Assembly (NCBI GenBank): GCA_964434885.1
Contig: CAYSWQ010000005.1
Span: forward strand, 1 to 55,510
From: an uncultured Methanosarcinales archaeon
GTDB taxonomy: Archaea > Nanobdellota > Nanobdellia > Woesearchaeales > GW2011-AR9
Length of the DNA: 55,510 nucleotides
Direction of reading: 5' to 3'
Of this stretch, positions 10,392 to 55,510 are shown in pieces (positions within the stretch are counted from its first letter, which is position 1; every line of letters starts with the position of its first letter). Below the pieces are notes generated by a model. That model did no database searches. It saw only the letters and a program-made list of their open reading frames with translations, and was not told where the DNA came from. The position numbers and the translations under genes were made by a program.

Positions 10392-11950
10392 TTTTAAATT
10401 ATTTAGTTTTAGTTTTAGCAATTTTATTAGTTTTAACACCTTTAGTTATCTTTCCAGTATTTGGCTATGATTGGGCAGTTCATAAAGAAATATCGGATAA
10501 ATTAACCACTAGTGGATCATTGGAAAGTGTTTCTTGGACTGAAGCATACAAATATACTCCGGGAACAGCACTTATAATAAACATGGTTGGCAATTTGTCT
10601 GAAAATAATCCTTTTATATTAAAAATTTTAACAATAATTTTATCTGTTCTTTTTGTAGTGTTGTTTTTTATTATTTTAAAAAAATTTGTATCTAAGACAA
10701 TTCATGTTGGGTTAGTTTCATTGTTTTTACTTGGATCATTTGAAATATTAGTTTATACTTCAGTTCTTCATTCTCAATTATTGGGTTATATTTTATTATT
10801 ATTATTATTTTATTTAATATTAGAAAAGAAATTTGAATTAGTATTATTTTTCTCCATTATAATTTCACTAACACACACTTGGACAAGTTTTTTTGTATTG
10901 GTATTTTTTATATTTTATATGGTTGTAGAAGATCAAGGAAATAAAATTTGGATTTATTTAAGTTGTTTGACAATTTTATTTATTTCAACCACATATAATT
11001 TTTTTGTAAGTGGACCTATACTTAATATATTAAAATTAAATTCTAATTTGTTGGTGTTTGTTTTTGTAGCACTTATTTTTTCGATATTTTTTTTAATATT
11101 GGTCTTATTGAAAAAGAAAGATTTCCATAATTTATTGATTATTTATTATAATAAATTGAATAAAAAGTTTTTGAGATATGTTTTGTTTGTGTTATTGGGA
11201 GGAATAAGTTTTTTATTTTTTCAATTAATGTATTTGAAGCATTCAACTAATTTAATTTCATTAATCCTTTTCAATTCTGGAAAATTATTGGTTGCAGTAT
11301 TATTTATTTATTCCATAACAAATCAATATAATTTGAAAAATCATCAAAACCAATTATTATTTTCATTTATTTGTTCATCGGGATTGCTTTTGTTTGTTGG
11401 GATGTTATTTAAGTTTTTTATGCCCCAACTTTCACCAATTTTATCTTCTATTGGAACACGAACAATATTAGTTCTTCCCATTTTTGCCAGCATTTTTATT
11501 GCAATTATGTTTAAAAAAAAAATAAGTAAATATACAAATAGTTTATTTTCATTAATTTTGATTTTCTTATTGGTGGCAAGTAATTTGTTATTGATTCTCA
11601 ATCCAACAATTTTTTCTCAAACAAATAATCTCCCCCCCTATGATTTTAATCAAAAGGAAATTATGTCTATTGATTATGTTTCTTTTCAAATTCCTTTGGA
11701 TAAATTTATTTTCACTAGTTTTCGTTATAATTTTTTATTAAATTATGATAATTCAAAAGAATTCAAAAATAAAATAATTTCCAACAATAATTTTGATGAA
11801 GAGGGATACTATATCTTCACGAAGATCATGGGGAAATATGGTGTTTTACAAGAGGAAAAAACTATGGGAAAACAAGCACCAATTTCAATAATAATTGATC
11901 CCAATAAAGATTTAATTTACAACAATGACGAAGTCAAGATATACAATTAA
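10376..11950 (+). CDS. Large polytopic membrane protein with a C-terminal soluble domain (possible glycan polymerase/GT-C-like; function unknown)
   Basis: 524 aa with about 12 or more TM segments. Overlaps the flippase gene. No WWDYG motif, so it is not called AglB. Confidence 0.55.
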   Translation: MDQKIILNYLVLVLAILLVLTPLVIFPVFGYDWAVHKEISDKLTTSGSLESVSWTEAYKYTPGTALIINMVGNLSENNPFILKILTIILSVLFVVLFFIILKKFVSKTIHVGLVSLFLLGSFEILVYTSVLHSQLLGYILLLLLFYLILEKKFELVLFFSIIISLTHTWTSFFVLVFFIFYMVVEDQGNKIWIYLSCLTILFISTTYNFFVSGPILNILKLNSNLLVFVFVALIFSIFFLILVLLKKKDFHNLLIIYYNKLNKKFLRYVLFVLLGGISFLFFQLMYLKHSTNLISLILFNSGKLLVAVLFIYSITNQYNLKNHQNQLLFSFICSSGLLLFVGMLFKFFMPQLSPILSSIGTRTILVLPIFASIFIAIMFKKKISKYTNSLFSLILIFLLVASNLLLILNPTIFSQTNNLPPYDFNQKEIMSIDYVSFQIPLDKFIFTSFRYNFLLNYDNSKEFKNKIISNNNFDEEGYYIFTKIMGKYGVLQEEKTMGKQAPISIIIDPNKDLIYNNDEVKIYN

Positions 11951-13020
11951 TTATTTTTAAGAATTTTCGAATAAATATTTTGATATCTTTTTGAAATTAT
12001 TTCCCAATCAAACATTTCTGCTTTTCTTCTTGCATTTTTTCCTAATTTTGCTCTTAGTTTTTTGGATTTAATTTTTTCTAACGCATTTTCTAAGTCATTT
12101 AAATTGTTTGGTTTAATCATCAAGCAATCATTCTCATTTTTAAATACAATTTTATTATTTCCTACATTCGTAATGATGCAAGGAATACCACATGCCATTG
12201 CTTCTAAGACAACCACTGGAAAACCTTCAATTAAGGATGGCAAAATAAAGACCTCGTGGGATTGGTAGATTCCGGGTAAGTTTTTGTTTTTTATTTCTCC
12301 TTTAAAGAAAATTTTTCTTTTAGCTTTTTTAATTAATTTTCTTTTGATTGGGCCATCACCAACAAGTGTTAAGGTAAATTCTTCATGTTTATTTACCACA
12401 TCAACGAGTAAATCAAAACCTTTTATTTTTTCTAATCTACCAACTGACAATAATTTAATCTGTTTTTTATTTTTTATTTTATTTTTTATTGGTTTAAATA
12501 AAGAAGTATCAATGCCGTTGGGAACATATTTAACATGGTTAGTGCTGAAATTAATTAAACTTGTTTTATCAACAACACTAATTTTATCAATTAAACTAAA
12601 TCGTATTAACATTTTGTCTAGTATTCTTTTAAAATAATTGATTTCTTTTTTATTGAATGTTGTTCCATGTAATGTACAAATCAATGGAATATTTAATAAT
12701 TTTGAAGATAAAGATATGGCAAAAGCAAGATCGATGGAGTGAACATGAATTATTTTTGGTTGAATTTTTTTTAAAATATAAAAAGATTTAATAAATAATA
12801 GAAAAAGAGACATAATTCTTTTAATTGAGATATTATCTAAATCTTTTGATTTGGCTTTCATTCCAAATTTTAAAATATTTTTACTTTTTGTTTGGCCACA
12901 ATTTGATGTTAGTACAAACACAGAATTTTTTTTTGATTGTATTTTAACTAAATTACTTACAACTGAAGCATCCCCTCCAATTAAAGGAGGGAATTTTTTG
13001 GTAACATGGAGAATTTTCAT
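11947..13020 (-). CDS. Glycosyltransferase family 4
   Basis: MKILHVTKKFPPLIGG N-terminus and EGFPVVVLEAMACGIPCI (E-x7-E region). Confidence 0.85.
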   Translation of the reverse strand: MKILHVTKKFPPLIGGDASVVSNLVKIQSKKNSVFVLTSNCGQTKSKNILKFGMKAKSKDLDNISIKRIMSLFLLFIKSFYILKKIQPKIIHVHSIDLAFAISLSSKLLNIPLICTLHGTTFNKKEINYFKRILDKMLIRFSLIDKISVVDKTSLINFSTNHVKYVPNGIDTSLFKPIKNKIKNKKQIKLLSVGRLEKIKGFDLLVDVVNKHEEFTLTLVGDGPIKRKLIKKAKRKIFFKGEIKNKNLPGIYQSHEVFILPSLIEGFPVVVLEAMACGIPCIITNVGNNKIVFKNENDCLMIKPNNLNDLENALEKIKSKKLRAKLGKNARRKAEMFDWEIISKRYQNIYSKILKNN

Positions 13021-19000: not shown

Positions 19001-19059
19001 TGTGGTTACTTTTGGGTAGTGTTATATATTAGTAGGTGTTAGATGGTGGAAAATTTAAA

Positions 19060-21573
19060 ATGTCTACTGATAATGATGGAAATGGTTCTGATGGTTCTGA
19101 TATGGATACTTATGTGAATGAACTTTGGGACCAAGCTGCAGAAGCTGATGAATTACCTGGAGAAAAGACCATGGTAATGTCAATGCAACATATTGCAGAA
19201 GATGAAAGTTCTGAAGCAGTTGGAGCTATTTCTACCGATGATAAACCAGAACCAGAATTATTTAAAGAGAGTTCTGTTCAAGTTGATCAAGAAGCATTAA
19301 AAGAACCAGAAGTTGTTTCTATGACTCCAGAAGAACTTGAAAAGCCAGGTTTTTGGGCTGGATTATATGCTCGATTAAATCAACCAGTGTTTAATGGTAA
19401 AGAAGAATCAGATCCAGAAATTCCAATTGAGGTAGAAGAACCAGTGGAAAAACCAATAATTCCTGCGTCAAAACCAGAACCTGTTTTGCTTGAAGAGAAA
19501 GTAGAAGAGACAGATGCTTTAGCAACTACTTTAGAATTTGAAAGAAAAGAGCCTGGTTTTTTGGGTCGATTGTATCAGGCAGCCAAGATTTTTTTTAGTG
19601 GAGAAGAAGAACTTCAAGTTGAACCAAAAGAATTACTGGCGGAAAATCCCGCTTATGAAGAAATGGAATTGATCGATAGATTATCTTATGATTTAACAAA
19701 TGAATTTTTTCCTTTTCCTGGAAGTATGGAAAGACCAGCTGTTTTTGATGATTTGGATGAAGCAAAAATGGCACTATTGGATTTTGTTAGTGCAGAAGGA
19801 TATAGGAAATTGGAAGATATTTTACCAAAATCAGATAGGGAAGATCAGAAATTAATGTTTTTGAATTGTGCTTATAATTTATTGGAAAATGATTATGTTC
19901 GTTTAGTAAAAACGAAAGCAGACTCAGAAAAAGCAAGACTTATTTTGGAAAGCAAAATTGTTGCATTAAGGGGAGACTTGAGTCAAGCGAAAGAAGACAT
20001 AGATAGTTTACGAGAAGTTGGCGAAGATTATAATAGAGATAATGAAAATTTTAAACAATATAATGATGAATTAGAAGGAAAATTGGATGAAGCAGAAGCT
20101 GAAGCAAGCCAATTAAAAATTAATTTAGAGAGTGTAAATAAACAACTTGGTGAAACTCAAGGGTTGTTATATCGGATTACAGGAGAAAGAGATTCTTTGC
20201 AAAAGAAGTTGAGAAGATATATTGATATCATGGGAGACCATACTGCTGAAGAGTTTAGAGATAGGACTTTGGAAGCAGAAGGAGAACACCAAGTGGAAAA
20301 ATTACAAAGACAAAATTTAGAAGGAGAATTCGAAGATTATAAATTAGCTGCAGAGCAGAGAGAAGCAGATTTGCAGGCTCGGTTAGATGGTGTTGAAGGA
20401 TTACAATTAGGAATAGAAAGAAGCAAAAAAGAAACTGAAGAACAATTGGTTGCAGTACAGGCTGAATCTAGTTCGGCACAAGAAAGAATTAGTAAATTAC
20501 AAGCTTCTTTAACTCGAGTTAATGATACTTTAGCAGAATATAGGGTGAATTTGGGAGGAGATGAACCAGTTGAAATTAAAGCTTATATTGAAAGTTTGGA
20601 AAATGCTAAAGAGGAAGCTGAAGAAAAATTAACTACTGCAACTGAATCATTGAAATTACTAAAAGATAGATTGGGAAGATATCATACTTTAACTGCAGAA
20701 CAAATTGACACAGAATTTGATGGTATTAAAGAGACTAATGAAAGATTGGAAGAAAGTGTTTTTGATTCTAAAGAAGAATTGGCTGAGATTGTTGAAGAAT
20801 TGAAAGGAGTTAAACAAACTTTAGATGAGAGAACTGCCGAATTAGAAAGAGTTCAAAAAGAATTTAAAACTTATAAATTAGTAGATCCAGAAGCACAAGA
20901 GCATGCAGATAATTTATTTGCATTGGAAGAACAGAATGAATTATTGTCTGCTCAGAATGCAGAATTAGTGGTTGATTCTCATCCAAGAAGAGGAAATAAT
21001 GTTTTAATGGTTGCAGCAGGATTTTTGACTGCTACTTGTTTGGGGGCAGCTGTTTATTTGGGAATTCAGAATGCAGATTTATCTAGTGAGTTAGTTAATG
21101 CTAGAAATCAAAATACAAGTTTAACTCAAACTTATCAGAAAGAGAAAACTCAAATGGTTAGTGGCTATGCACAGAAGAGTAAAGCAGCAGAACAGAAACA
21201 TTCTCAATTTGCTGCTCGAGCCAACAAACTTAATGCTTCTTTGCAAAAGAAATTAGAAGAATCAAAATCAGAATATCAGGATTTAGCTGTGGAATCAGTG
21301 GCTATGGAGAATTATGCATCAATCTTAAAAGCAGATAATTTAGGTGAATTCCAAAAAGTATTGAGAGATTATACTCGAAGTGAAGGGGGAGTAAAAATGA
21401 CTTGTTCTACTCGAGCAGAATGTGCAGAAGATTTGTATGGTCAAATGGTGGATGGATACACACCTGCAGAAGGAGATCTGAAAACAAAAGAAAAATTTGT
21501 GAAGCTGTTTGAAGAAACTTATGCTAAAACACTTCCTGAAAAATTTGGGAAGAAAATCTCTATTGGGATGTAA
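19060..21573 (+). CDS. Giant acidic coiled-coil protein with a single TM segment (unknown function)
   Basis: The track ORF starts at GTG 19036, and in-frame ATG 19060 follows GGTGG. It has an acidic Pro/Glu-rich N-terminus, two PGF(W/L)xxLY motifs, about 350 aa of heptad-like sequence, a TM (NNVLMVAAGFLTATCLGAAVYLGIQ, nt about 20998-21066) and a roughly 165-aa tail. Confidence 0.7.
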   Translation: MSTDNDGNGSDGSDMDTYVNELWDQAAEADELPGEKTMVMSMQHIAEDESSEAVGAISTDDKPEPELFKESSVQVDQEALKEPEVVSMTPEELEKPGFWAGLYARLNQPVFNGKEESDPEIPIEVEEPVEKPIIPASKPEPVLLEEKVEETDALATTLEFERKEPGFLGRLYQAAKIFFSGEEELQVEPKELLAENPAYEEMELIDRLSYDLTNEFFPFPGSMERPAVFDDLDEAKMALLDFVSAEGYRKLEDILPKSDREDQKLMFLNCAYNLLENDYVRLVKTKADSEKARLILESKIVALRGDLSQAKEDIDSLREVGEDYNRDNENFKQYNDELEGKLDEAEAEASQLKINLESVNKQLGETQGLLYRITGERDSLQKKLRRYIDIMGDHTAEEFRDRTLEAEGEHQVEKLQRQNLEGEFEDYKLAAEQREADLQARLDGVEGLQLGIERSKKETEEQLVAVQAESSSAQERISKLQASLTRVNDTLAEYRVNLGGDEPVEIKAYIESLENAKEEAEEKLTTATESLKLLKDRLGRYHTLTAEQIDTEFDGIKETNERLEESVFDSKEELAEIVEELKGVKQTLDERTAELERVQKEFKTYKLVDPEAQEHADNLFALEEQNELLSAQNAELVVDSHPRRGNNVLMVAAGFLTATCLGAAVYLGIQNADLSSELVNARNQNTSLTQTYQKEKTQMVSGYAQKSKAAEQKHSQFAARANKLNASLQKKLEESKSEYQDLAVESVAMENYASILKADNLGEFQKVLRDYTRSEGGVKMTCSTRAECAEDLYGQMVDGYTPAEGDLKTKEKFVKLFEETYAKTLPEKFGKKISIGM

Positions 21574-21607: not shown

Positions 21608-23668
21608 ATGAAAAAATTAGAAAACATGTTGAGAAGTGCAGTTTTTGCTGGAAGTATGGCATTAGCTGGATTAGGATTATATTCAACTGCAGTAGCAGGA
21701 GAACCTGGACCAAAATCAGATGCAACTGTTGTAGATGCAAGAGGACCAGATGCTGGTGCTCCTAAATTAAAATATAAATTAGATGCTGGTGTTCCAGATA
21801 CTGCTTCACCTGATAGTGCAAAACCAGACATGTATGGTGGTAAAAAAGACAAGGGTGCTCCAATTGTTAAAAAAGATATGTCTTGGAATTGGAATTTTTC
21901 TGATAGTGGAAGTAATGCAGAAGCAACTCCAGATGCTAGTGTTAGGAAAGATATGGGAACTAAGAAAGATTTAGGTTCTCAGAAAGATATGGGAACTAAA
22001 GATATGGGCCCTAAAAAAGATGTAGGTTCTGACAAAGGTAAAGGAAAAACAGCTCCTAAAACACCACCTAAAAAAGTCCCTAAAAAAACTCCTAAAGTAG
22101 AATATAAAGGGAAATTGGAAATTAAATGTGAGAAAGGAGAATACAAAGTTCCTACTAACAGAGGAGATTTACCAGGGAAGTGTGTTATTGATAATAAACC
22201 AAAATACAAACCTTCTAAGTTAGGAACTAAAACCATCTGTGGAACTGATGTTGTTAAGAAAGTTAAATTCAAAACCGGAAAAAAAGCAACTTTTAAGGAA
22301 TTGAATTTGAAAGGTTACACTTGTATGCACAAGCATGTAGTTAAGTCTTTTGGATTTGACTTTTTGAATGGAAACCAATACACTAACAAATTAGAAGAAA
22401 TGTGTGGACCGCAATATCAATGTGCTAAGAATGGTTTAGCTCAGAAAGCAAAAGGATTGAGTAAAGCTAAGCAGTTAGAAAATATGTTAGAACCATGTAA
22501 AGATGAGTACAAGGTTTTGAAAACAAAAACTGAAGCAGCTCAAAAGAGTTACACTGGTTTACAAGCAGCAATTAGGAATTTAGATGGTGCTGTAGCTAAA
22601 CAAAAAGCACAAGTGAAAGCAAATTATCCTAAAGCTTTAGAAGCAGTGAAGAAAGGAGTACCTCAAGTTGGTGATTCGGAAGCTGTTAATAAAGCTAAAG
22701 CGTTTTTTGATGCGTCCAAAAAAGATTACCAAGCGAAAGAGAAAGATTTGAAAGCTTATTTGGGAGAATTAGCAAAGACTGGTTGTGTGACTGAAGATCT
22801 AGGACATTTGAATAAGAAGATTCAAAATCAGTTTACTCAAGTCTACAATGACTTAAATGATTTGGGAGGCGAAGTGGATGCAAACACAGAAGGTCGTTTA
22901 GCTAATAAAAAGAAACTTGGAGAATTAGGACCAAAAGTTAGAAAGAATATAACTAACATTGGAAACAATGCAGATAACATTGGTGTTAACTCAGATGATA
23001 TTGAAGGTCTTAAAAAGAAAGATTTACAACATGATGCAGCAATAAAGAAAGGTACAGCTGCAAGAAAAGCCTTAGAAGAAAAAGTAAGCAAAGGACATGG
23101 CGTTGAAGTTGGAATTGGACCAGTTTATATGAAAGATGCAGCTAATGCAGAAACTGGTGACAATGGTTCTCGTTATGGAGTTATGGCTCAAGTGGTTAAG
23201 AAATTTGGACACAAAGCTAAAACTTATCTTGGCGGTTTCTTAATGGTTACTGGTGGTTCTGGAAGTAAAACCACAGATGCAAATAAACCTTCTTACCAAG
23301 GTACTGTAACTAATGAATCTGGTAACACTAGTTTCACTGCAGGAGTTGTAGCTGGAAAAGACGATCTTTTACATAATGGTAAAAATGTTGATTTCGGTTT
23401 AGAAGGAGCATTAGGTGGAGGAGTTGATCTTGAAACAAAAAACACCAAAGTTAAAGGACAACATTATGTAAATGGTGTTAAACAAGGAAAAGCTTTGGAG
23501 TATGATAAAGATTCAACTACAGAAAGACCTGGTAATTTTGTTGGTATGATTTGCCCAACAGTTACTTTCAATAATAAATTGAAACTAAGTACCTGTGCTA
23601 TTGGTAAATTAAATACTAAAGGAAAAGTTTCACCAGGAGGATCATTACTATTAAAATATGCTTTTTAG
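21608..23668 (+). CDS. Secreted Lys-rich protein with a central coiled coil and a C-terminal OMP-like beta-barrel domain (unknown function)
   Basis: GAGGA SD and a signal peptide. Also KDMGTK-type low-complexity repeats and a PKKxPKK tract. The last ~190 aa alternate hydrophobic and polar residues and end in LLLKYAF*. Confidence 0.7.
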   Translation: MKKLENMLRSAVFAGSMALAGLGLYSTAVAGEPGPKSDATVVDARGPDAGAPKLKYKLDAGVPDTASPDSAKPDMYGGKKDKGAPIVKKDMSWNWNFSDSGSNAEATPDASVRKDMGTKKDLGSQKDMGTKDMGPKKDVGSDKGKGKTAPKTPPKKVPKKTPKVEYKGKLEIKCEKGEYKVPTNRGDLPGKCVIDNKPKYKPSKLGTKTICGTDVVKKVKFKTGKKATFKELNLKGYTCMHKHVVKSFGFDFLNGNQYTNKLEEMCGPQYQCAKNGLAQKAKGLSKAKQLENMLEPCKDEYKVLKTKTEAAQKSYTGLQAAIRNLDGAVAKQKAQVKANYPKALEAVKKGVPQVGDSEAVNKAKAFFDASKKDYQAKEKDLKAYLGELAKTGCVTEDLGHLNKKIQNQFTQVYNDLNDLGGEVDANTEGRLANKKKLGELGPKVRKNITNIGNNADNIGVNSDDIEGLKKKDLQHDAAIKKGTAARKALEEKVSKGHGVEVGIGPVYMKDAANAETGDNGSRYGVMAQVVKKFGHKAKTYLGGFLMVTGGSGSKTTDANKPSYQGTVTNESGNTSFTAGVVAGKDDLLHNGKNVDFGLEGALGGGVDLETKNTKVKGQHYVNGVKQGKALEYDKDSTTERPGNFVGMICPTVTFNNKLKLSTCAIGKLNTKGKVSPGGSLLLKYAF

Positions 23669-23694: not shown

Positions 23695-26661
23695 ATGAAA
23701 ATCTTAAAAATATTCACGGTGATTTTTTTAGTTTTAGCTTTGACTACCAGTGGATTGGCTCACCTTGATTGGTTAAAGGTAGATAATACCTTGACTCCTC
23801 TTTTGGCTTGGGACAATGGTAAAAAAACTAAAACTATTACTGATGGAGAATCAGCTACCTTTTCAACAGGGCGGTTTATTTCTCTTACTGACTCAACTGT
23901 AAGTTTAAAGGCATATTTGAATGATGCTCTTACTGGAAAAACAATCAATCAGATTTATTCTGAAGCAGTTGATGTAACAAAAGACGCTCAAGAAAGAAAG
24001 ATTACTATTAAACAGAGTAATTATTTGAAGCCAGGTAAATATGTAGTAGTAATTAATCTACAAACAAAAAATGAGCAATCATCTGATGTTAGCTTAACTT
24101 TAGAAGTTAAAGAAAAGAGTAACTCTGTTACTCCAGTAAATCCGATTGATCCAAATGGACCTAAAGTTAATCCTGGACCTTTTAAGAAAGTCATTAAACC
24201 TTATGCTTTTATGTCTTGGTCTGGTCAAGATATTAATCAGAAAAGTAAAACTGTGATTGTGGGAGAATCTGCAAAAGCAGTATATGTTGCTTCTAGTAAT
24301 GAAGGATATGTGATTGCCAAATTGGAATTAGTACAAAATGGTAAAGTTATCAAAAAATTGGTTGAGAAATCAGCAACTGATAATTACTTAGCTTATGTTA
24401 CTGGTTCTGAAACACTAAATTTAGGTGTTGGTAAATATGAATTGCGATTAGTAGCAGTAGATAAAGACAAAGATTATTCTGTGTATTCTTTATATTTGGA
24501 TGTTAATCAAAAGACAGCAACCTATAAACCAAAGATTCCTCAGAAGCAACCAGGACCTTTCAAAAAAGTTCCTCAAGGGAAAGCAGCACCTTCAATTACT
24601 TTGTCATCTAACAATGTGGTTGTGAAAGAAAATGAGAAAACTAGCATCACAGTTACTGCAACTGATGCAGATAGTAAAAACTTGAAGTTAAGAGCTTACT
24701 TTAAATACACTATTTTTGGTTGGACACTTCCAATTGAATTTAAGTCGTTATGGGGAGCTACTTTTGTAGATAACGGAGATAATACTGGAACTTACACATT
24801 TGCTCCAGATTATAACTTTGTAATCCATAAGTTAACTAGCAAGGTTACTGATTTATATGTGGCTGCTTCAGATGGAGAAACTACTGATGCAGAAGCTAAA
24901 GTGACTGTAACAGTATTGGATGTTAATCGAAAGCCTACTTTTGTTAATTTCGTTAAAGACAGAACCATTGAAGTTGGTAAAGAATTGAAATTTAAAGTAA
25001 CTGGAACAGATGCAGATAAAGAAGATATTAAATCTTTGAAATTCGCAGCTGGTCCAGCTTCATTAGGTTTTAAATTTACTGAAAAAGGCGAATTTACTTG
25101 GACTCCAACTAAAACTGGAGAATATGCAGTATTCTTCCAGATTACTGATCAAATGGGTTTGAGTAGTGATTTGGCTACATTGAAAATCAATGTTAAGGCA
25201 GCTCCAGTTAAACCAAATACTCCTCCAGTAATGGATCCGATTAAGGATAAAACTGGATATGTGGGAGAGAAAGTTAGCTTTGGAGTTAAAGCCACTGATG
25301 CAGATAATGATAAGTTAACATTTAACAAGTTTTACTTGCCTACTGGATCTAAGTTTACCGATAATGGAGATGGAACAGGAACATTTACTTGGACTCCAAC
25401 CAAAGTTGGAACTTATAAAATGGCTTTCCAAGCAGATGATGGAAAAGCAGAAAGTAAGGCAGAGTTTGTTACTTTGACTATTAAGGAAAAATCAACTACA
25501 AATAACAACCCAGTAATCGAATCAATTGGAGACAAACAAGTTGAAGTTGGTAAACAATTAACTATCAAAGTTAAAGCAACCGATAAAGATGGAGATAAGT
25601 TAACTTGGGAAGTTAATCCAAAAGACTTTACTGGACACAAGTTTGTTGACAATGGAGACGGAACTGGAGTATTCACCTGGACTCCAACTAAAGTAGGAAC
25701 TTATTCTGCTTTATTCGGAGTATCTGATGGAATGGGGGGAGAAGACAAGGAAAATATTGGTATCGAAGTTAATGCTAAACCAGTTACTCCTACAAATAAC
25801 AACCCAGTAATCGAATCAATTGGAGACAAACAAGTTGAAGTTGGTAAACAATTAACTATCAAAGTTAAAGCAACCGATAAAGATGGAGATAAGTTAACTT
25901 GGGAAGTTAATCCAAAAGACTTTACTGGACACAAGTTTGTTGACAATGGAGACGGAACTGGAGTATTCACCTGGACTCCAACTAAAGTAGGAACTTATTC
26001 TGCTTTATTCGGAGTATCTGATGGTTTTGGTGGAGGAGAAGCTAAAGAGACAATTAAGATCAACGTAATTAGATCTAATTCAGCACCAAAGATTGTTTCT
26101 TCACCTTTGACTACTGCTAACTTGGGAAAAGAATACACTTACACTGTTAAAGTAGTTGATGCTGAGAATGATCCAGTTAAATATGAAGTATTGTCTGGAC
26201 CAGCAGGAATGAGTTTTAAGAACAATGTTTTATCTTGGACACCAACAAATTCGGGAAAAGCATGTGCTTTGATTCAAGTAACTGAGACAAACACAGCAAG
26301 TAAATTGACAGATAGTCAAGGTTTCTGTGTTGGAACTCAAGAAAAAACTGCGGAAGTAAAATTCGTTACTGCTAACTTATGGTCTGAATATCTCTTACCT
26401 GGAGAATACTTGAGAATCAATGTAGGGGTAAACAATAACGGGGACAAAGATTTCGAAGATTTGAAAGTTACTGGTGTTGTTTACAGTTTAGGACTAATGA
26501 GAACTACTGGTCATTTTGACTTAGATAGTGGAAAGACTTGGCAGAAACAACTAGTAATGGAAATTCCAGCAGATACTCCTGTTGGAGATTATTATGTAAG
26601 AATCACTGTTAGTGGAGATGAGATTAAACACACAACTCATCGGGTTTTTACCATCTACTAA
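23695..26661 (+). CDS. Large secreted adhesin-like protein with about 6 cadherin-like/He_PIG-type Ig repeats and CARDB-like end domains
   Basis: Signal peptide. Two PGPFKKV linkers. Repeats carry (V/K)TATDAD.., DNGDGTG(T/V)FTWTPTK.G.Y motifs. No C-terminal TM. Confidence 0.8.
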   Translation: MKILKIFTVIFLVLALTTSGLAHLDWLKVDNTLTPLLAWDNGKKTKTITDGESATFSTGRFISLTDSTVSLKAYLNDALTGKTINQIYSEAVDVTKDAQERKITIKQSNYLKPGKYVVVINLQTKNEQSSDVSLTLEVKEKSNSVTPVNPIDPNGPKVNPGPFKKVIKPYAFMSWSGQDINQKSKTVIVGESAKAVYVASSNEGYVIAKLELVQNGKVIKKLVEKSATDNYLAYVTGSETLNLGVGKYELRLVAVDKDKDYSVYSLYLDVNQKTATYKPKIPQKQPGPFKKVPQGKAAPSITLSSNNVVVKENEKTSITVTATDADSKNLKLRAYFKYTIFGWTLPIEFKSLWGATFVDNGDNTGTYTFAPDYNFVIHKLTSKVTDLYVAASDGETTDAEAKVTVTVLDVNRKPTFVNFVKDRTIEVGKELKFKVTGTDADKEDIKSLKFAAGPASLGFKFTEKGEFTWTPTKTGEYAVFFQITDQMGLSSDLATLKINVKAAPVKPNTPPVMDPIKDKTGYVGEKVSFGVKATDADNDKLTFNKFYLPTGSKFTDNGDGTGTFTWTPTKVGTYKMAFQADDGKAESKAEFVTLTIKEKSTTNNNPVIESIGDKQVEVGKQLTIKVKATDKDGDKLTWEVNPKDFTGHKFVDNGDGTGVFTWTPTKVGTYSALFGVSDGMGGEDKENIGIEVNAKPVTPTNNNPVIESIGDKQVEVGKQLTIKVKATDKDGDKLTWEVNPKDFTGHKFVDNGDGTGVFTWTPTKVGTYSALFGVSDGFGGGEAKETIKINVIRSNSAPKIVSSPLTTANLGKEYTYTVKVVDAENDPVKYEVLSGPAGMSFKNNVLSWTPTNSGKACALIQVTETNTASKLTDSQGFCVGTQEKTAEVKFVTANLWSEYLLPGEYLRINVGVNNNGDKDFEDLKVTGVVYSLGLMRTTGHFDLDSGKTWQKQLVMEIPADTPVGDYYVRITVSGDEIKHTTHRVFTIY
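25498..26024 (+). repeat. Perfect 233-bp direct duplication (25498-25730 and 25792-26024; period 294 bp = 98 codons) inside the adhesin gene
   Basis: The two copies read identically base for base by eye and encode TNNNPVIESIGDKQVEVGKQLTIKVKATDKDGDKLTWEVNPKDFTGHKFVDNGDGTGVFTWTPTKVGTYSALFGVSDG twice. Confidence 0.9.
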
Positions 26662-29329: not shown

Positions 29330-30976
29330 ATGATGAATGTTCTTGGTGATGTTATGACTATGCAAGGTTTTGAAAGAAAAGATGTAGATGCTATTCTGGA
29401 TGTGGCAGATGAAGTTAAATTAGCAATTCATGATCCGGAAGGATTTGGTAAAAAGTTTAAAAAAAAATATGGGAGAAGAGTTTCTAAATTGTTAAAAGAC
29501 ACATTGACTATTGACACTTTTTTTGAGAATAGTACAAGAACTAAGTTTTCTTTTGAAATAGCTGTAATGAAAGCAGGAGGAAAGATTACTGGTTTTCCTT
29601 CCGGAAAATATACTTCTTTAGCAAAGGGAGAAAGTTATGCCGATACCGAAGATATGTTTAATCTTTATGGTTCAGATGCAATAGTGATGAGGAGTAAGAT
29701 AGAAGGGATGCCAAGATGGATTAAAGATTTTTTAGTTCAAGGTTACGATCATATTTTAGGTCATCACCAAGAATCTGGAATGCCTTACATATATAATGTT
29801 CCTTTAATTCTCAATGGGGGAGATGGAAAAAATCAACACCCCACCCAGTGTTTGTTGGATCTATTTACATTAAGAGAAATTGCTCGTTCACAAGGAAAAG
29901 AATTAGAAGGAATGAAAGTAGCATTGCTTAATGATATTGCTCATGGAAGAACAATTTCTTCACTTATTTCGGTTGCACATCTTTATGATTTAGAATTACA
30001 TTTTGCTTCACCGAAACCAGATCGGTTTGGGTTACAAAAACATCATCGTGAAGATTTGATGCGAAGAAGAGTTCTTTTTTACGATCATGGAACTGATTTT
30101 TTAGAAGCAATGAATGCAGCTTTTGCAGCTTATCAATCTCGCCCACAAAAAGAAAGAGTTGGAGCGGGAGAAGATTTGATATCGATGATTAACAAAGGCC
30201 AAATAAATTTAAAGATGATGGAAGAACTAGGAGATTCGGCACCTTATTTACTCCATCCTCGGCCAGTCGATTCAGAAGTTTTTCAAGAAATTCATCCAGA
30301 TTTGAACTTTCATCCTAAGAATAAATCACGAGCTCAATCAGCCAATGGAGTTTATGTGAGAATTGCTTTGGAGGCGTTAGGTTTGGGAAAGATCCAAGTT
30401 GATCATGATTTTTCAGGAAGTTCAAGTGATTTTGAAGGAGTAAATATCCAGAAATTGAAGAAAAATTCTGAACGAAAAAAAAGAGATGAGAATTCTCGAT
30501 CTGGTTATATAGAAGGAAGTGGAATTGTTATTGATCATATAGAAGAAGGATTAGGTAGGAGATTGTGTGGGGTTTTGGGTTTAGAAGGTTTAGGAGTACC
30601 AAAAGTAGTTTCTGATTATATGGAAGTAGCAAATGGTAGAAAATCAAGAAAAGATATGATTAAAATTCATTGTAATTACAAACTTTCAGATAGACAACTC
30701 GAAGCGATTGCTTTAATTTCTCCGGATGCAACAATCAGTAAGATTAAAAACGGTCGAATCAAGAAAAAATTTAGGCCTGTGTCTGGGAATTATGTTGAAG
30801 ATTTGGTTGTGTGTGGTAATGATGCTTGTGTTTCTCATGTTGCTAAAGAACCAACAACTCATAAACACCTACTTACTGGAGATTTAGATGAACGAGTAGT
30901 TAGTTGTTATTATTGTGGTAGGGCAGAAGGAGTAAAAGAGATTTATGACCGAAAAGGGTTCAAATATGTTAAATAA
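29330..30976 (+). CDS. pyrB: Aspartate carbamoyltransferase with the catalytic (PyrB) and regulatory (PyrI) chains fused in one polypeptide
   Basis: PyrB part: NSTRTKFSFE, GESYADT..DAIVMR, GGDGKNQHPTQCLLDLFTLRE, HGRT. After a charged linker comes the PyrI part: GIVIDHIEEG, KDMIKI, and the Zn domain CGNDACVSH...CYYCG. Confidence 0.85.
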   Translation: MMNVLGDVMTMQGFERKDVDAILDVADEVKLAIHDPEGFGKKFKKKYGRRVSKLLKDTLTIDTFFENSTRTKFSFEIAVMKAGGKITGFPSGKYTSLAKGESYADTEDMFNLYGSDAIVMRSKIEGMPRWIKDFLVQGYDHILGHHQESGMPYIYNVPLILNGGDGKNQHPTQCLLDLFTLREIARSQGKELEGMKVALLNDIAHGRTISSLISVAHLYDLELHFASPKPDRFGLQKHHREDLMRRRVLFYDHGTDFLEAMNAAFAAYQSRPQKERVGAGEDLISMINKGQINLKMMEELGDSAPYLLHPRPVDSEVFQEIHPDLNFHPKNKSRAQSANGVYVRIALEALGLGKIQVDHDFSGSSSDFEGVNIQKLKKNSERKKRDENSRSGYIEGSGIVIDHIEEGLGRRLCGVLGLEGLGVPKVVSDYMEVANGRKSRKDMIKIHCNYKLSDRQLEAIALISPDATISKIKNGRIKKKFRPVSGNYVEDLVVCGNDACVSHVAKEPTTHKHLLTGDLDERVVSCYYCGRAEGVKEIYDRKGFKYVK

Positions 30977-33117: not shown

Positions 33118-34869
33118 ATGAAGAAAAGAATCGCAATTGTACACAAAGATAAGTGTAATCCTGGAACTTGTGCTAACTTATGTGAGAAGTTATGTCCGGT
33201 TAACCGAACTGGAAAAGAATGTATTTTGATTCCTGGGAAAGCTAAAATTGATGAGTTATTGTGTACAGGATGTAATATTTGCAGTAACCGGTGTCCGTTA
33301 GGAGCAATAGAGATTCTTAATCTTCCAGAAGCATTGAAGAAACCACCAATTCATAGATATGGGGAAAATGCGTTTGAATTATTTAGTTTACCTGCTCCTT
33401 TGTTTGGTCAAGTAACTGGGTTGTTGGGGAGGAATGGAATTGGAAAGTCTTCGGCGTTTAATATCTTGGCCGGATTAACCAAACCAAACCTAGGAAATTA
33501 TGAAGGAGAGGTTGATTTTAAAGAAATTATTTCTTTTTTCAAAGGAACTGAATTACAAAAAGTATTGGAAAAGATCAGAGATAAAAAAATTACGTTGTCT
33601 TACAAACCACAACAAGTTGATTTGATTCCCAAACAATTTCAAGGAACAGTACAAGAGTTATTGAAGAAATTGGATAAAGAAGGAAAAATCAAAGAGTTGG
33701 TAGAGGAATTACAGTTAACACACTTTTTAGATACTGAAGTTTCAAAAGTTTCCGGAGGAGAATTACAAAGAGTGGCAATTGCGGCAGCTACTTTGAAAAA
33801 AGCAAATTTATATTTATTTGACGAACCATCTTCTTATTTAGACATTAAACAAAGAGTTAACGTTTCTAAGTTTATTAGAAAATTAGCAAATGATGAAACC
33901 GGAGTAATGGTGGTAGAACACGATTTGATTATTTTTGATTATATGACAGATTTAATTAATATCATGTATGGGCAACCAAGTTGTTATGGAATTGTTTCTG
34001 GATTGAAATCTACGCGAGAAGGAATTAATACTTTTTTAGATGGTCAATTAAAAGAAGAAAATATTCGATTTAGACCTTATCCAATTAAATTTGAAAAAAC
34101 ACAAAAAAAGGAAAAACTTGCCCCAGTTCCGTTAATTTCTTGGACTGAAACTTCTAAAAAATTAGGAAAGTTTCAATTAAAAGCGGAAGCAGGAGAGCTT
34201 AACCAAAATGAAGTAATTGGTGTGTTGGGAGAGAATGGAATTGGAAAAACTTCATTTATTAAGATTTTAGCTGGATTAATTAAAACAAATTCTGGAAAGA
34301 TAAATGGTAAAGTAAAAGTAGCTTACAAGCCACAGTATTTAGAAACAGAATCTGATCAATTAGTGGCTGAATTTTTGAAAGACGCAATTAATAATTATTC
34401 CACCCAATTAATTAATCCATTAGAAATTGATAAATTATTAACTAAGAAATTATCTCAACTTTCGGGAGGAGAATTACAAAAAGTAAGTATTGTTCATTGT
34501 TTAAGTCAAGAGGCTGATTTGATTTTATTAGATGAGCCTTCTGCATATTTAGATATCGAACAGAGGTTATTAGTTTCAAAAGTTATCAAAAATGTAACTG
34601 AAGAAAGAGAATTAACTGTTTTAGTAGTAGATCATGATTTGATGTTTTTAGATTATATTTCAGATCGATTAATGGTATTTTCTGGTGTTCCAGCTAAAGA
34701 AGGATTGTTAAAAGGGCCTTTTGAAATGGAGGAAGGAATGAATTTGTTTTTAGGTGATTTAAATATTAGTTTGAGAAGAGATCATAACTCGAAAAGACCA
34801 CGGATCAATAAGGCTGGTTCGGTTAAAGATCGAGAACAAAGAGGAAAAGGAAAGTTGTATTATAGTTAA
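33118..34869 (+). CDS. ABCE1: ABCE1 (RNase L inhibitor homologue; ribosome recycling factor)
   Basis: N-terminal 4Fe-4S clusters (CNPGTCANLCEKLCP, CTGCNICSNRCP) followed by two ABC cassettes (GRNGIGKS, GENGIGKT, LSGGELQ x2). Confidence 0.95.
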   Translation: MKKRIAIVHKDKCNPGTCANLCEKLCPVNRTGKECILIPGKAKIDELLCTGCNICSNRCPLGAIEILNLPEALKKPPIHRYGENAFELFSLPAPLFGQVTGLLGRNGIGKSSAFNILAGLTKPNLGNYEGEVDFKEIISFFKGTELQKVLEKIRDKKITLSYKPQQVDLIPKQFQGTVQELLKKLDKEGKIKELVEELQLTHFLDTEVSKVSGGELQRVAIAAATLKKANLYLFDEPSSYLDIKQRVNVSKFIRKLANDETGVMVVEHDLIIFDYMTDLINIMYGQPSCYGIVSGLKSTREGINTFLDGQLKEENIRFRPYPIKFEKTQKKEKLAPVPLISWTETSKKLGKFQLKAEAGELNQNEVIGVLGENGIGKTSFIKILAGLIKTNSGKINGKVKVAYKPQYLETESDQLVAEFLKDAINNYSTQLINPLEIDKLLTKKLSQLSGGELQKVSIVHCLSQEADLILLDEPSAYLDIEQRLLVSKVIKNVTEERELTVLVVDHDLMFLDYISDRLMVFSGVPAKEGLLKGPFEMEEGMNLFLGDLNISLRRDHNSKRPRINKAGSVKDREQRGKGKLYYS

Positions 34870-47364: not shown

Positions 47365-49680
47365 ATGAATAAAAAAACAATTTATGCATTATTTTTAGTT
47401 AGTTTGGTAGCAGTTTTTGCTTACATGGTTATGGCTAGTTTTGATGGAAGGGGAGTATCAGTAATAAGTCCAACAGTAGATAATAATTATTCTGGTGTTT
47501 TGATATTAAATGCCACAATTAATGATTCTGGAACTGATATTGATAATGCAACAAATGTAACTTTCTTTTTTTATAGTGATACAGATGGTTCTTTAGTTTA
47601 TAATGTTACATTTGAGAATTCTTCTGGTAACCAAAGTCGATTTAATACTTCTGTTAATACTGTGACTTTACTTGCAGATGATACATATAATATCACAGTT
47701 AATGCTACTAATGCGAGTAAAGATAACATTGAGAATAGTTCAATAACTGGGGTGCTTATAGATAATACTGCTCCAACAATAACTATTAATACAGCAAACA
47801 ATTCTTTTTTAGGTACGAGTGTAACTAGTTTGGTTTTTAATGTAACTGTTGCAGATTCAGGATCAGGAGTTTTGACAACTGTTGATTTACAGAATAATTC
47901 AGAAACAAATGAAAGTGCTTCGCAAGTAGGAACTGCAGCATCGAGAGAATTTAATCGAACAGTAGTTTTGAGTGAATTAGCTACAGGAAGCAACACATTA
48001 ACAGTAGTTGCTAATGATACTATCACTGCTGCTAATGGAGGAATAAACACCAATGATTCAGAATCTATTGTAGTGTGGGTAGATAATGTTTCTGGACCTA
48101 TTATAGAATTAAATTCAACACAATATTTACAAAACTATACGTGGACTACAGATACTACTCCAACTTTATATTTTAATTTCTCTGATGATTATTCACCAAA
48201 CGCATCTTGTGAATTATTTGTAGATGAAACTGGATATGGGGTTACTGATGTTTTGAATAATACTGCTACAGGTTTGACTGCCAATGATAGTTTGAGTATT
48301 GGTGTACATAGTTGGTATGTTAATTGTACTGATTTGGGTGGTTTTTTAAATTCATCATTAGAAAACAATCCTGCTTTTACTTTAGACGTAGTTAGTCCAA
48401 TTACAGTAACTACACCTACAAACAATAGTTGGACGAATGGAACTGAAGCAGGTAATGTTTCGTTTATATTTAGTTTCGTTTCTGGATTAACTAATGGAAA
48501 TAACACAAACGATAATGGTTTAGTTAGTTGTGAATTATATATAGAAAATGAAACAGGAAGTGTTTTCAATCCAGCTGGAGTCAATACCACTGCATTGAAT
48601 GATACTTCAATGACTTTCACTAATAACCAATCTTTAGTTAATGGACAAGCGACTAATTGGACTATTAATTGTAGTTTTAATGGTACAGATATAACTCAAG
48701 CAGTTAACAATGATTACTTTATTTTGAATGTAGATAATGCTACTCCAACAACTCCAACATTAACTTCATCTGCTAGTTCATCTACTTCATTAACAATTGC
48801 AGTAAGTACTAGTTCTGATGTTGTTTCTTGTGTAGATACAGACCCAGACACTAGTATTTCAGGTAGTGGAGCAAGTTGGACAATTACAAAAGGAGGATTA
48901 AGTCCAAGTACATCTTATTCATTTCAAGTAACTTGTACTGATTCTGCTAGTAATTCGGCTCAATCAGCTTCAACGGCATTTAGTACTTCAGCTAGTGGAG
49001 GAGGCACAGGAGGTTCAGGGGGAGGAGTTTCAACCTCGGCAACTGGAAGTTTCTCTAAAGAAGTATGGAGTTCATTAGATGCAGGAGATACTGCTACAGT
49101 TAAAGTAGAGAATGGTGAAATTGGGATTTCAGAAGTTAGTTTTAAAGTAGAAGAAAAAACATATGGTGTTTGGTTAGAAGTGGAAAAAGTTAGTACTTTG
49201 GATGAAGGAATAACCAAGTATGGTGGAAAAACATACAAAACCATTCAAATAATGGGCGGAAATACAGAAAAAATAGTAACTAGTAAGAACATGGCAACTG
49301 TAAAGTTTACAGTTAAAAAAACTTGGTTGACAGAAAATAAAGTGGATAAGACTAGTGTGGCTTTGTTTAGATATAACGATGATAAATGGAATGAATTAAC
49401 TACAACAATGGATAAAGATGATGGTACTTATGTACATTATACAGCAATGACGCCAGGATTTAGTTATTTTATGATTGGAGAGAAACTCACTCCAACTTCA
49501 ACGACAGCTGAAAAGAAAACCACTACAACAACAAAAGAAACAACTCCAACTAAAGAAGCAACTAAAAAAACTGATGATAAAAAAGTCACAAAAGAAAGAA
49601 TGAATAAAGGATGGATTGTGGCTTTGATCGTAGCTTTATTAGTTATTGGTGGACTTGTTTATTTCTGGAAAAAGAAATAG
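47365..49680 (+). CDS. Surface (S-layer-type) glycoprotein with a PGF-pre-PGF domain, Thr-rich stalk and C-terminal TM anchor
   Basis: Signal/anchor MNKKTIYALFLVSLVAVFAYMVMA. About 40 N-x-S/T sequons in the first ~450 aa. ...FRYNDDKWNELTTTMDKDDGTYVHYTAMTPGFSYFMIGEK, then T-rich linker, then GWIVALIVALLVIGGLVYFWKKK. Confidence 0.8.
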   Translation: MNKKTIYALFLVSLVAVFAYMVMASFDGRGVSVISPTVDNNYSGVLILNATINDSGTDIDNATNVTFFFYSDTDGSLVYNVTFENSSGNQSRFNTSVNTVTLLADDTYNITVNATNASKDNIENSSITGVLIDNTAPTITINTANNSFLGTSVTSLVFNVTVADSGSGVLTTVDLQNNSETNESASQVGTAASREFNRTVVLSELATGSNTLTVVANDTITAANGGINTNDSESIVVWVDNVSGPIIELNSTQYLQNYTWTTDTTPTLYFNFSDDYSPNASCELFVDETGYGVTDVLNNTATGLTANDSLSIGVHSWYVNCTDLGGFLNSSLENNPAFTLDVVSPITVTTPTNNSWTNGTEAGNVSFIFSFVSGLTNGNNTNDNGLVSCELYIENETGSVFNPAGVNTTALNDTSMTFTNNQSLVNGQATNWTINCSFNGTDITQAVNNDYFILNVDNATPTTPTLTSSASSSTSLTIAVSTSSDVVSCVDTDPDTSISGSGASWTITKGGLSPSTSYSFQVTCTDSASNSAQSASTAFSTSASGGGTGGSGGGVSTSATGSFSKEVWSSLDAGDTATVKVENGEIGISEVSFKVEEKTYGVWLEVEKVSTLDEGITKYGGKTYKTIQIMGGNTEKIVTSKNMATVKFTVKKTWLTENKVDKTSVALFRYNDDKWNELTTTMDKDDGTYVHYTAMTPGFSYFMIGEKLTPTSTTAEKKTTTTTKETTPTKEATKKTDDKKVTKERMNKGWIVALIVALLVIGGLVYFWKKK

Positions 49681-53883: not shown

Positions 53884-54079
53884 TTTTATACCGAGAGGTT
53901 AATTATTTATAAGTTTTTGGGAATAAAGGGCTTAATCCAGAATAAAGAGCGTTTGAAGAAGGGCAATTAAGTATTAATTTTAACTAGAAAACAATGCATT
54001 TAAATAATTTAAATGAATAACAAACATTAATTGATATAATTAAGTAAAAGCAAATAATTAAAAATAAAAAAGGTGAAAA

Positions 54080-54823
54080 ATGAAATCAACATTATTTAAA
54101 TCACAAAGAGTAGGAGTTTTAGTAGATGTTCAAAATTTATATTATTCGGCCCGTAGTTTATATCATCGGAAAGTTAATTTTGAAAATGTTTTGAAAGATG
54201 CAGTTGGAAACAGAACCCCAATTAGAGCAATTGCTTATGTGGTTAAAACAGAGGAATTTAAAGAAAAGACTTTTTTTGAAGCATTAGAGAGAATTGGTTA
54301 CGAAATTAAAGCTAAAGATTTACAGATTTTTTATGGGGGAAATAAAAAAGCAGATTGGGATGTTGGTTTGGCCATGGATGCGATTGAATTAGCTGCTAAA
54401 TTAGATGTTATTGTAATTGTTTCTGGAGATGGAGATTATATTCCTCTAGTTCAACATTTGAAAAGAGCATTTGGTTGTAAAGTTGAAGCAATGGCTTTTG
54501 GAAAAACAACATCTTCAAAATTAAGAGAAGAAGTTGATGGGTTTATTGATTTGGATGAAAATAGTGGCCGGTATTTGAGAAAAGCAATTCCTTTTAGAGA
54601 AAATGGAAAATTTGATAGTAAAAAAGGGAAAGAAGAAAGGGCAAAAAGTTCTGTTAAACCTGCTTCGAGGAGTGGAGCTATTTCAAAAGTTAAATCAACT
54701 TCAACCAAATTAGTAAAAGAAACTAAGAAAAAAGAAGTAAAAACAAAAAAAGAAGAGAAAAAATCAACATTACCTAAAATTAATAAATCTGTTCCGAAAA
54801 CAAAACTTAAGACAACTAAATAA
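54080..54823 (+). CDS. NYN/LabA-like (DUF88) domain protein with a Lys-rich C-terminal tail
   Basis: VGVLVDVQNLYYSAR ... DWDVGLAMDAIE ... VIVSGDGDYIPLV, then K/S/T-rich low complexity. Confidence 0.75.
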   Translation: MKSTLFKSQRVGVLVDVQNLYYSARSLYHRKVNFENVLKDAVGNRTPIRAIAYVVKTEEFKEKTFFEALERIGYEIKAKDLQIFYGGNKKADWDVGLAMDAIELAAKLDVIVIVSGDGDYIPLVQHLKRAFGCKVEAMAFGKTTSSKLREEVDGFIDLDENSGRYLRKAIPFRENGKFDSKKGKEERAKSSVKPASRSGAISKVKSTSTKLVKETKKKEVKTKKEEKKSTLPKINKSVPKTKLKTTK

Positions 54824-54835
54824 ATTATCTTTAAA

Positions 54836-55510
54836 ATGACCTACAAAAAAAAGATTATTGAATTAAAGAATGTTTGGAAGACTTATTATATGGGAGATAT
54901 TTCTTTAGATGTTTTGAAAGGGGTTAATGTTGAAATTGAAGAAGGGGAATTTGTAGTTATTGTTGGTCCGAGTGGAAGTGGGAAATGTGTTACAGGAGAT
55001 ACATTAATTGTTTCTGAAGATGGCGAATTAATTCCTATTTGTGAAATAAGAAAACAGAAAGTATTTGCATTAAATAAGATGGGTGAAATGAAATCTTTCA
55101 AATATTCCAAATTCCACCAAAGAAGAGTAAGTAGTATTCTTGAACTAGAAACCACTTCTGGTAAAAAAATTAAATGTACTCCAGAACATCCTTTATTCAC
55201 AATAACTGAAAATGGTTTCAGTGAAATTAAAGCAAAAGATTCTTTAAATGAGTTTGTTGCTACACCGAGAATAATTTCATTTAAAGGGAAGCCCCAACAA
55301 TTAGATTCTTTTTCAAAGTTGAAAGCGGACAAAACATTAGTGATACATAACTCTTCTAATTTAGTTAAGGGTCTGTTTAAGAAACTAAAAGTTTCCAGGA
55401 AGGAAATCTGTAAAAAATTCAAGATTAAGCCCAATACTTATGATTATTGGTTACAAGGAAACAATATAAAACTATTTAATCTAGTTAGAATTTTAAGCCA
55501 TTACCCTAAA
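54836..55510 (+). CDS. ABC transporter ATP-binding protein (MacB/LolD-like), 5' part, interrupted by an intein within Walker A; runs off the window
   Basis: Hand translation: MTYKKKIIELKNVWKTYYMGDISLDVLKGVNVEIEEGEFVVIVGPSGSGK|CVTGDTLIVSEDGELIPICEI... The frame stays open to the window end. The track shows only an antisense shadow ORF here. Confidence 0.85.
   Translation, partial: MTYKKKIIELKNVWKTYYMGDISLDVLKGVNVEIEEGEFVVIVGPSGSGKCVTGDTLIVSEDGELIPICEIRKQKVFALNKMGEMKSFKYSKFHQRRVSSILELETTSGKKIKCTPEHPLFTITENGFSEIKAKDSLNEFVATPRIISFKGKPQQLDSFSKLKADKTLVIHNSSNLVKGLFKKLKVSRKEICKKFKIKPNTYDYWLQGNNIKLFNLVRILSHYPK
54986..55510 (+). mobile_element. Intein (N-terminal splicing domain plus start of the linker/endonuclease region), partial
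   Basis: Begins with Cys immediately after GPSGSGK. Block A is CVTGDTLIVSEDGELIPI and block B is GKKIKCTPEHPLFT (TxxH). No return to ABC sequence (ST..., Q-loop) occurs before the window end. Confidence 0.8.

Follow-up and report, generated by a model that had tools for sequence, protein, structure and literature searches.

At its 3' end, the stretch of DNA analysed here carries the first part of an ABC transporter ATPase gene that appears to be interrupted by an intein. This stretch, which we call the window, comprises 55,510 nt of contig CAYSWQ010000005.1 (GCA_964434885.1, forward strand). With a probability of roughly 0.93, the element is a 505-aa intein of the canonical class 1 that contains a double-motif LAGLIDADG endonuclease and sits in frame at GPSGSGK↓ST (↓ marks the insertion point) of a MacB-type ABC ATPase from a low-GC DPANN archaeon related to Woesearchaeota. 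The insertion, all of the splicing blocks, intact endonuclease motifs, colinear exteins, and an empty orthologous site can be seen directly in the sequence, from which we infer splicing and homing. The intein is of an ordinary type at the usual P-loop position; it is the host family for which we found no published account.

On the + strand, the frame beginning at ATG 54836 is open for 225 codons and reaches the last base of the window (55510) without a stop. Its residues 1-50 (54836-54985, +) form the N-extein, which resembles MacB/LolD/FtsE-like ABC transporter ATPases and ends in ...EFVVIVGPSGSGK. In the PDB, these residues match the nucleotide-binding domains of MJ0796, MacB, and LolD with E-values of 4e-12 to 6e-10, and they share 73-83% identity with intein-free ABC ATPases from Candidatus Woesearchaeota. 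The Walker A motif up to its lysine, GPSGSGK, lies at residues 44-50 (54965-54985, +); G44, S46, G47, S48, G49, and K50 are invariant across intein-bearing and intein-free homologues. The Ser-Thr that completes the motif is found 1,515 nt downstream, outside of the window.

The gene is missing from the list of open reading frames supplied with the window because ORFs that run off the window end are dropped; for the same reason, an antisense ORF of 182 aa (54886-55434, -) is listed in its stead. The preliminary description had pointed out this substitution, and the list bears it out. The antisense ORF has no Pfam match and is spurious, not a gene; the strand opposite is conserved as protein across ~20 sequence clusters. 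There is a lesson here for annotation: a gene cut by a contig end can give way in an ORF track to a spurious antisense ORF.

The ABC similarity of the frame ends at Cys51 (TGT, 54986-54988), and the next residues are CVTGDTLIVSEDGELIPICEI. From here to the window end (54986-55510, +) run the first 175 of the 505 putative intein residues, corresponding to precursor residues 51-225. TIGR01445 (intein_Nterm) matches residues 51-122 with 45.9 bits against a cutoff of 24.5 (E 8.4e-12), and Pfam Intein_splicing (PF14890) matches the window fragment with 37.9 bits against a cutoff of 35.8; the predicted intein is well above chance. Block A, CVTGDTLIVSEDG (54986-55024, +; it starts CVTGDTLIV...), begins with Cys51, the predicted first nucleophile. 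Block B, GKKIKCTPEHPLFT (55160-55201, +), contains T115-P-E-H118; all alleles have Thr or Ser at position 115, and His118, Pro119, Phe121, and Thr122 do not vary.

The preliminary description had proposed a frame open from ATG 54836 to the window end, a switch to intein block A at Cys51, and a block B with TxxH. The translation confirms the first, the TIGR01445 score and the presence of the same cysteine in 14 of 14 aligned alleles confirm the second, and GKKIKCTPEHPLFT at its position confirms the third. A basic HTH-like stretch, which it had also reported, fared less evenly. Our structure model predicts helices at precursor residues 174-232, but the HTH_3 and HTH_28 Pfam matches to residues 181-223 (55376-55504, +) all fall below threshold, with HTH_3 E-values of 0.006-0.1 in 5 of 10 family members. 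This basic helical segment, which precedes the endonuclease core, might recognize DNA as a helix-turn-helix module; we take this as no more than a hint.

Searching the window by tblastn with the full intein yielded only this one copy and no second one. Two other P-loop proteins in the window, aIF5B/IF2 (1030-2802, -; 590 aa) and ABCE1/RLI (33118-34869, +; 583 aa), are both intein-free; they mark the genome as archaeal. A 548-aa ORF at 29330-30976 (+) combines OTCace_N and OTCace catalytic domains with a PyrI regulatory domain and looks like a PyrB-PyrI fusion. Three ORFs of 845, 686, and 771 aa (19036-21573, 21608-23668, and 47365-49680, all +) have no Pfam match, and adjoining such ORFs, at 23695-26661, is a 988-aa protein with Ig/cadherin/PKD-like repeats that is probably a surface protein. 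The sole Rfam match in the window is a single tRNA gene (105-179, -).

A word-index search with the intein fragment alone gave no match, and when the 225-aa fragment was run against one genome per species, two ABC genes without an intein were all that came back, with no allele-bearing representative. ABC ATPases whose intein begins at the same residue emerged from an exhaustive HMMER search, and a profile built from these alleles recovered 15 further clusters. Among them is P0280, a protein of 748 aa whose first 225 residues are the window translation. The source contig of P0280, L003 (JGI metagenome 3300009008, Ga0115649_1005565), overlaps the final 10,675 bases of the window with 0 mismatches and extends 7,029 bases beyond it. 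Because the overlap is identical over this length, we took L003 to continue the window (window coordinate = L003 coordinate + 44,835); everything reported here beyond the first 175 intein residues rests on this public contig. The window intein fragment is 100% identical to L003 and to the N-terminal part of the full-length P0280, and 40-69% identical to same-site inteins of other ABC ATPases.

Given that the window ends inside the intein, and that related inteins in many P-loop genes could confuse assemblers, we considered that the intein of another P-loop gene was joined to the ABC gene at the contig end. The chance of such a chimera is negligible: an independent contig spans both junctions with identical sequence, and more than 15 independent clusters, from various samples and sources (JGI, ENA, NCBI, Logan), have the same architecture.

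On L003, the precursor (10001-12247) is an uninterrupted 748-aa frame in which the intein occupies residues 51-555 (505 aa, 1,515 nt). Pfam detects ABC_tran (100 bits), Intein_splicing (85 bits), and LAGLIDADG_3 (PF14528, 79.6 bits) in the full protein. The two LAGLIDADG motifs read LFGFLVGDGN (residues 257-266, with GDG at 263-265) and FIRGLFDCDG (residues 347-356, with DCD at 353-355). Block F (VYDLTVP) is present, the intein ends in FIIHN, and the C-terminal junction reads ...VYDLTVPGADNFVANDFIIHN↓STMMNQVG.... The first residue of the C-extein, Ser556, is invariant and is also the Ser of the Walker A GKS/T. From its Ser-Thr start (STMMNQ), the C-extein includes the Q-loop (FQQFNL), LSGGQQQR, Walker B (ILADEPTGNLD), a D-loop, and the H-switch (VTHD).

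The preliminary description had expected the Walker A Ser/Thr to supply the +1 residue of the C-extein, had left open whether an endonuclease lay further downstream, and had taken a lack of blocks F/G and of an ABC C-extein as the mark of a pseudogene or fusion. In the extended gene, blocks F/G and the C-extein are both present, the endonuclease is represented by its two LAGLIDADG motifs, and Ser556 is the predicted +1 residue.

These results bear directly on the idea that the insertion is decayed and no longer splices, whether as a pseudogene or as an ABC fragment fused to a Hint-domain protein, leaving the transporter ATPase dead. Inteins are known to degenerate in the course of the homing cycle, and the window alone, which stops inside the element, has only blocks A and B. 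The identical contig, with its uninterrupted 748-aa frame, blocks F/G, HN↓S, and whole C-extein, makes decay very improbable; so do the catalytic residues, all of which are invariant in 14 alleles, the constraint on amino-acid changes in both the intein and the extein, and the intact permease genes that adjoin the ATPase.

We modeled the precursor with AlphaFold, using an alignment of 14 sequences. The mean pLDDT is 82.5, and confidence is lowest at residues 557-563, just past the C-terminal junction. The best PDB matches found by Foldseek are the TliVMA intein (TM 0.74), PI-TkoII, PI-PfuI, and the ABC domain of MJ0796 (TM 0.70, 49% identity); the modeled intein has the HINT fold. Hint domains are also found outside of inteins, and the weak Pfam match to Hint (E 0.0013) would be compatible with a Hint domain of another sort, bacterial-intein-like (BIL) or otherwise, whose action is to cleave or rearrange the protein and not to splice it. 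We give this reading next to no chance. The intein pattern that BIL domains lack, in which a conserved catalytic site is interrupted by an element that ends in His-Asn and is followed by a +1 Ser/Thr/Cys, is present here: the element ends at HN↓S, contains a LAGLIDADG endonuclease, has exteins that run colinear with intein-free orthologues, and finds its top structural matches among true inteins.

Removal of residues 51-555 in silico restores Walker A as GPSGSGKST, with the junction peptide GSGK-STMMNQVGILDMPTK, and yields a product of 243 aa. This product matches the LolD profile without a break over positions 1-220 of 221, and the MacB nucleotide-binding domain likewise; the MacB model gives it 251 bits, compared to 224 for the precursor. 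The NCBIfam cut-offs are reached neither for LolD (TIGR02211, 244.9 bits vs 307.75) nor for MacB (NF007826, 251.3 bits vs 966), and the protein is therefore a MacB/LolD/FtsE-like relative, not LolD or MacB proper. Thus, of the MacB/LolD-like N-terminus originally described, the family resemblance stands, through the PDB and profile matches, but membership of either equivalog family does not. The exteins nearest to the spliced product are all intein-free: P0015 is 88% identical, P0006 86%, and P0004 85%. The alignment to intein-free orthologues that had been suggested as a check is colinear across the site.

On L003, two intact MacB_PCD/FtsX permease genes lie 1.5 and 3.9 kb downstream of the ABC ATPase, and the MacB_PCD/FtsX gene set is also present on two other contigs, L004 and L007. 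On L007 (3675-10244; NCBI GCA_974428215.1), the intein-bearing ABC gene comes after the CARDB-like gene and the two MacB_PCD/FtsX genes, not before them; the order differs, and the transporter gene set is therefore conserved but rearranged. The NYN-domain (LabA-like) protein encoded directly upstream in the window, at 54080-54823 (+), has a long C-terminal tail rich in lysine; 12 bases separate the end of its gene from the ABC start codon, and the gene holds the same position at the intein-free locus.

This intein-free locus is on L004, a TARA Oceans scaffold that encodes P0004, the 85% identical protein without an intein, in the same gene order as the window plus L003. The shared order runs from a 342-aa protein through two pyruvate/indolepyruvate-type oxidoreductase subunits and the NYN-domain protein to the ABC ATPase, followed by a 432-aa CARDB/DUF11-like protein, a MacB_PCD/FtsX permease, a nucleotidyltransferase, a 189-aa protein, and a second MacB_PCD/FtsX permease. 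The flanking proteins on L004 are 79-92% identical to their counterparts. Between the oxidoreductase and the NYN gene, L004 (5586-7136) has additional genes for a 328-aa metallophosphoesterase and a 100-aa protein; the matching interval of the window (~53884-54079) is without both.

The empty site on L004 reads ...GGGCCCTCAGGTAGTGGCAAG↓AGCACATTAATGAACCAAGTG..., and relative to it the insertion is exactly 1,515 nt. When the DNA of the filled and empty genes is aligned over the junction, ...GGAAGTGGGAAA↓TCAACAATG... stands against ...GGTAGTGGCAAG↓AGCACATTA..., with nothing lost or gained. The two loci, as judged from this alignment, are the filled and the empty site in orthologous genes. Because the filled and empty alleles are at syntenic loci of close relatives, the putative homing site is defined to the base. 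The locus makes an assay of endonuclease specificity and a test of mobility from P-loop to P-loop simple to set up.

Counting full-length sequences, fragments, and HMMER representatives, ~20 sequence clusters carry the ABC allele. Where sources are named, they are Candidatus Pacearchaeota, Candidatus Woesearchaeota, or just 'archaeon', and the proteins are labeled 'ATP-binding cassette domain-containing protein', 'putative ABC transport system ATP-binding protein', or 'hypothetical protein'. All full-length alleles (14/14) read GSGK↓C...HN↓ST, with inteins of 505-516 aa, and C51, H118, H554, N555, S556, and T557 are invariant in the 14 aligned alleles. Both endonuclease Asp residues are kept in 13 of 14, the first having been lost in P0283.

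In the extein tree, intein-bearing genes are scattered among intein-free ones; the window extein is 72% identical to the nearest intein-bearing extein (P0284) and 88% identical to an intein-free one. The correlation between intein and extein identities is weak (Spearman 0.29), and the intein is usually slightly less similar than the extein. We saw no sign of recent horizontal transfer among the sampled alleles; the intein is more similar than the extein in just 2 of 136 pairs. The distribution fits a long-running homing cycle of gain and loss, not a single recent sweep, and repeated precise loss could explain part of the patchiness.

Selection on the element was gauged from dN/dS between the two closest alleles, those of the window and P0284. 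pN is far below pS in all parts of the intein, the endonuclease core among them (pN 0.195 vs pS 0.63). Synonymous sites are saturated, with pS of 0.6-0.78, and the argument for selection is therefore a qualitative one, that pN << pS.

On the basis of established intein chemistry, the 748-aa precursor is expected to be inactive before splicing and unable to bind ATP properly, because its P-loop is split. Splicing would begin with an N-S acyl shift at Cys51, assisted by Thr115 and His118 of block B, to give a thioester with Lys50. Ser556, the +1 residue, would attack this thioester, and cyclization of Asn555, aided by His554 and Asp537 of block F, would release the intein. A final O-N shift would leave a Lys50-Ser peptide bond and an active nucleotide-binding domain of 243 aa. 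Once freed, the intein would use its LAGLIDADG core to cleave intein-free alleles within the DNA that encodes Walker A, and these alleles would acquire the intein during repair; homing of this kind would explain the scattered distribution among closely related ABC genes.

An intein that splits the ATP-binding loop might also have been domesticated as a conditional switch, with redox- or temperature-dependent splicing, for example, gating the transporter. The precursor should stay inactive until it is spliced, the clustering of inteins in P-loops has been argued to hint at function (PMC4760082), and the intein is retained under purifying selection in the qualitative sense given above. We nevertheless regard a switch as improbable: relatives at 85-88% extein identity have no intein at the same locus, and the endonuclease motifs are kept, as expected for a mobile element. 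A canonical, presumably mobile intein remains the preferred reading, which none of our results contradicts.

Inteins are concentrated in proteins of replication, recombination, and repair, with 61-67% in COG category L (PMC4760082). In the full-text literature that we covered, the main text of PMC4760082 included, we found no description of a native intein in an ABC transporter ATPase. Provisionally, then, the host family appears to be new to the intein literature, although public databases already contain the allele without comment. The known host range of inteins is extended by a conserved family in a membrane-transporter ATPase, and the preference of inteins for landing in P-loops gains a further clear example; our understanding of how inteins work is unchanged.

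Inteins of MCM, RFC, DnaB, RadA, VMA, and others classically enter the P-loop at the very point used here, right behind the Walker A lysine (PMC4760082). Other P-loop NTPases with an intein at GK↓C supply 73 of the best 150 matches to the window intein fragment. The nearest non-ABC hosts are HerA-like proteins and PhoH, whose inteins score 124-163 bits, and also SMC; MCM and RFC are likewise among the closest. Walker A is interrupted at the identical point, GK↓S/T, by related inteins in P0170, P0201 (SMC), P0288 (HerA-like, DUF87), and P0300 (PhoH); that of P0170 is a mini-intein without an endonuclease.

In a eukaryote, transfer of an intein between the P-loops of unrelated proteins has been proposed (PMC10710043). 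By analogy, the ABC intein might be one stop of a LAGLIDADG lineage that moves between the Walker A motifs of unrelated P-loop NTPases (HerA-like, PhoH, SMC, ABC) in DPANN and other archaea, its endonuclease tolerating the short shared sequence that encodes GxxGxGK-S/T. We put this forward tentatively and think it rather doubtful. If true, it would provide a prokaryotic test case for ectopic, cross-family transposition of inteins, and membrane-transport genes, beyond those of replication and repair, would be open to invasion.

Compared to known inteins, the element is closest to TliVMA (7qss), which among solved inteins is the best match both by sequence (E 1.5e-26) and by fold (TM 0.74). Like the ABC intein, TliVMA and PhoVMA (7qst), both from the archaeal V-ATPase subunit A, belong to class 1, carry a double-motif LAGLIDADG endonuclease, and interrupt an ATPase at its P-loop. 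The VMA inteins differ in that their host is a rotary ATPase rather than an ABC transporter subunit, and identity is ~20%; the ABC intein also has an extra helical segment of ~70 residues (170-240 of the precursor) ahead of the endonuclease core that does not align to TliVMA. The inteins of HerA-like (DUF87) proteins, PhoH, SMC, MCM (site a), RFC-S (site a), RadA, DnaB (site b), and VirB11 occupy the same point of Walker A, GK↓S/T, in host families other than ABC. The ABC inteins form a tight group of their own, scoring 601-739 bits against the profile, whereas the intein of any other host reaches at most 163 bits. On the side of the host, the spliced product shares all of the motifs of the nucleotide-binding domain with MJ0796 (1l2t/3tif), which is 49% identical to the window gene over the C-extein, and with MacB (5lj9) and LolD; these three proteins are intein-free, whereas the gene that starts in the window has a 505-aa intein in its Walker A motif.
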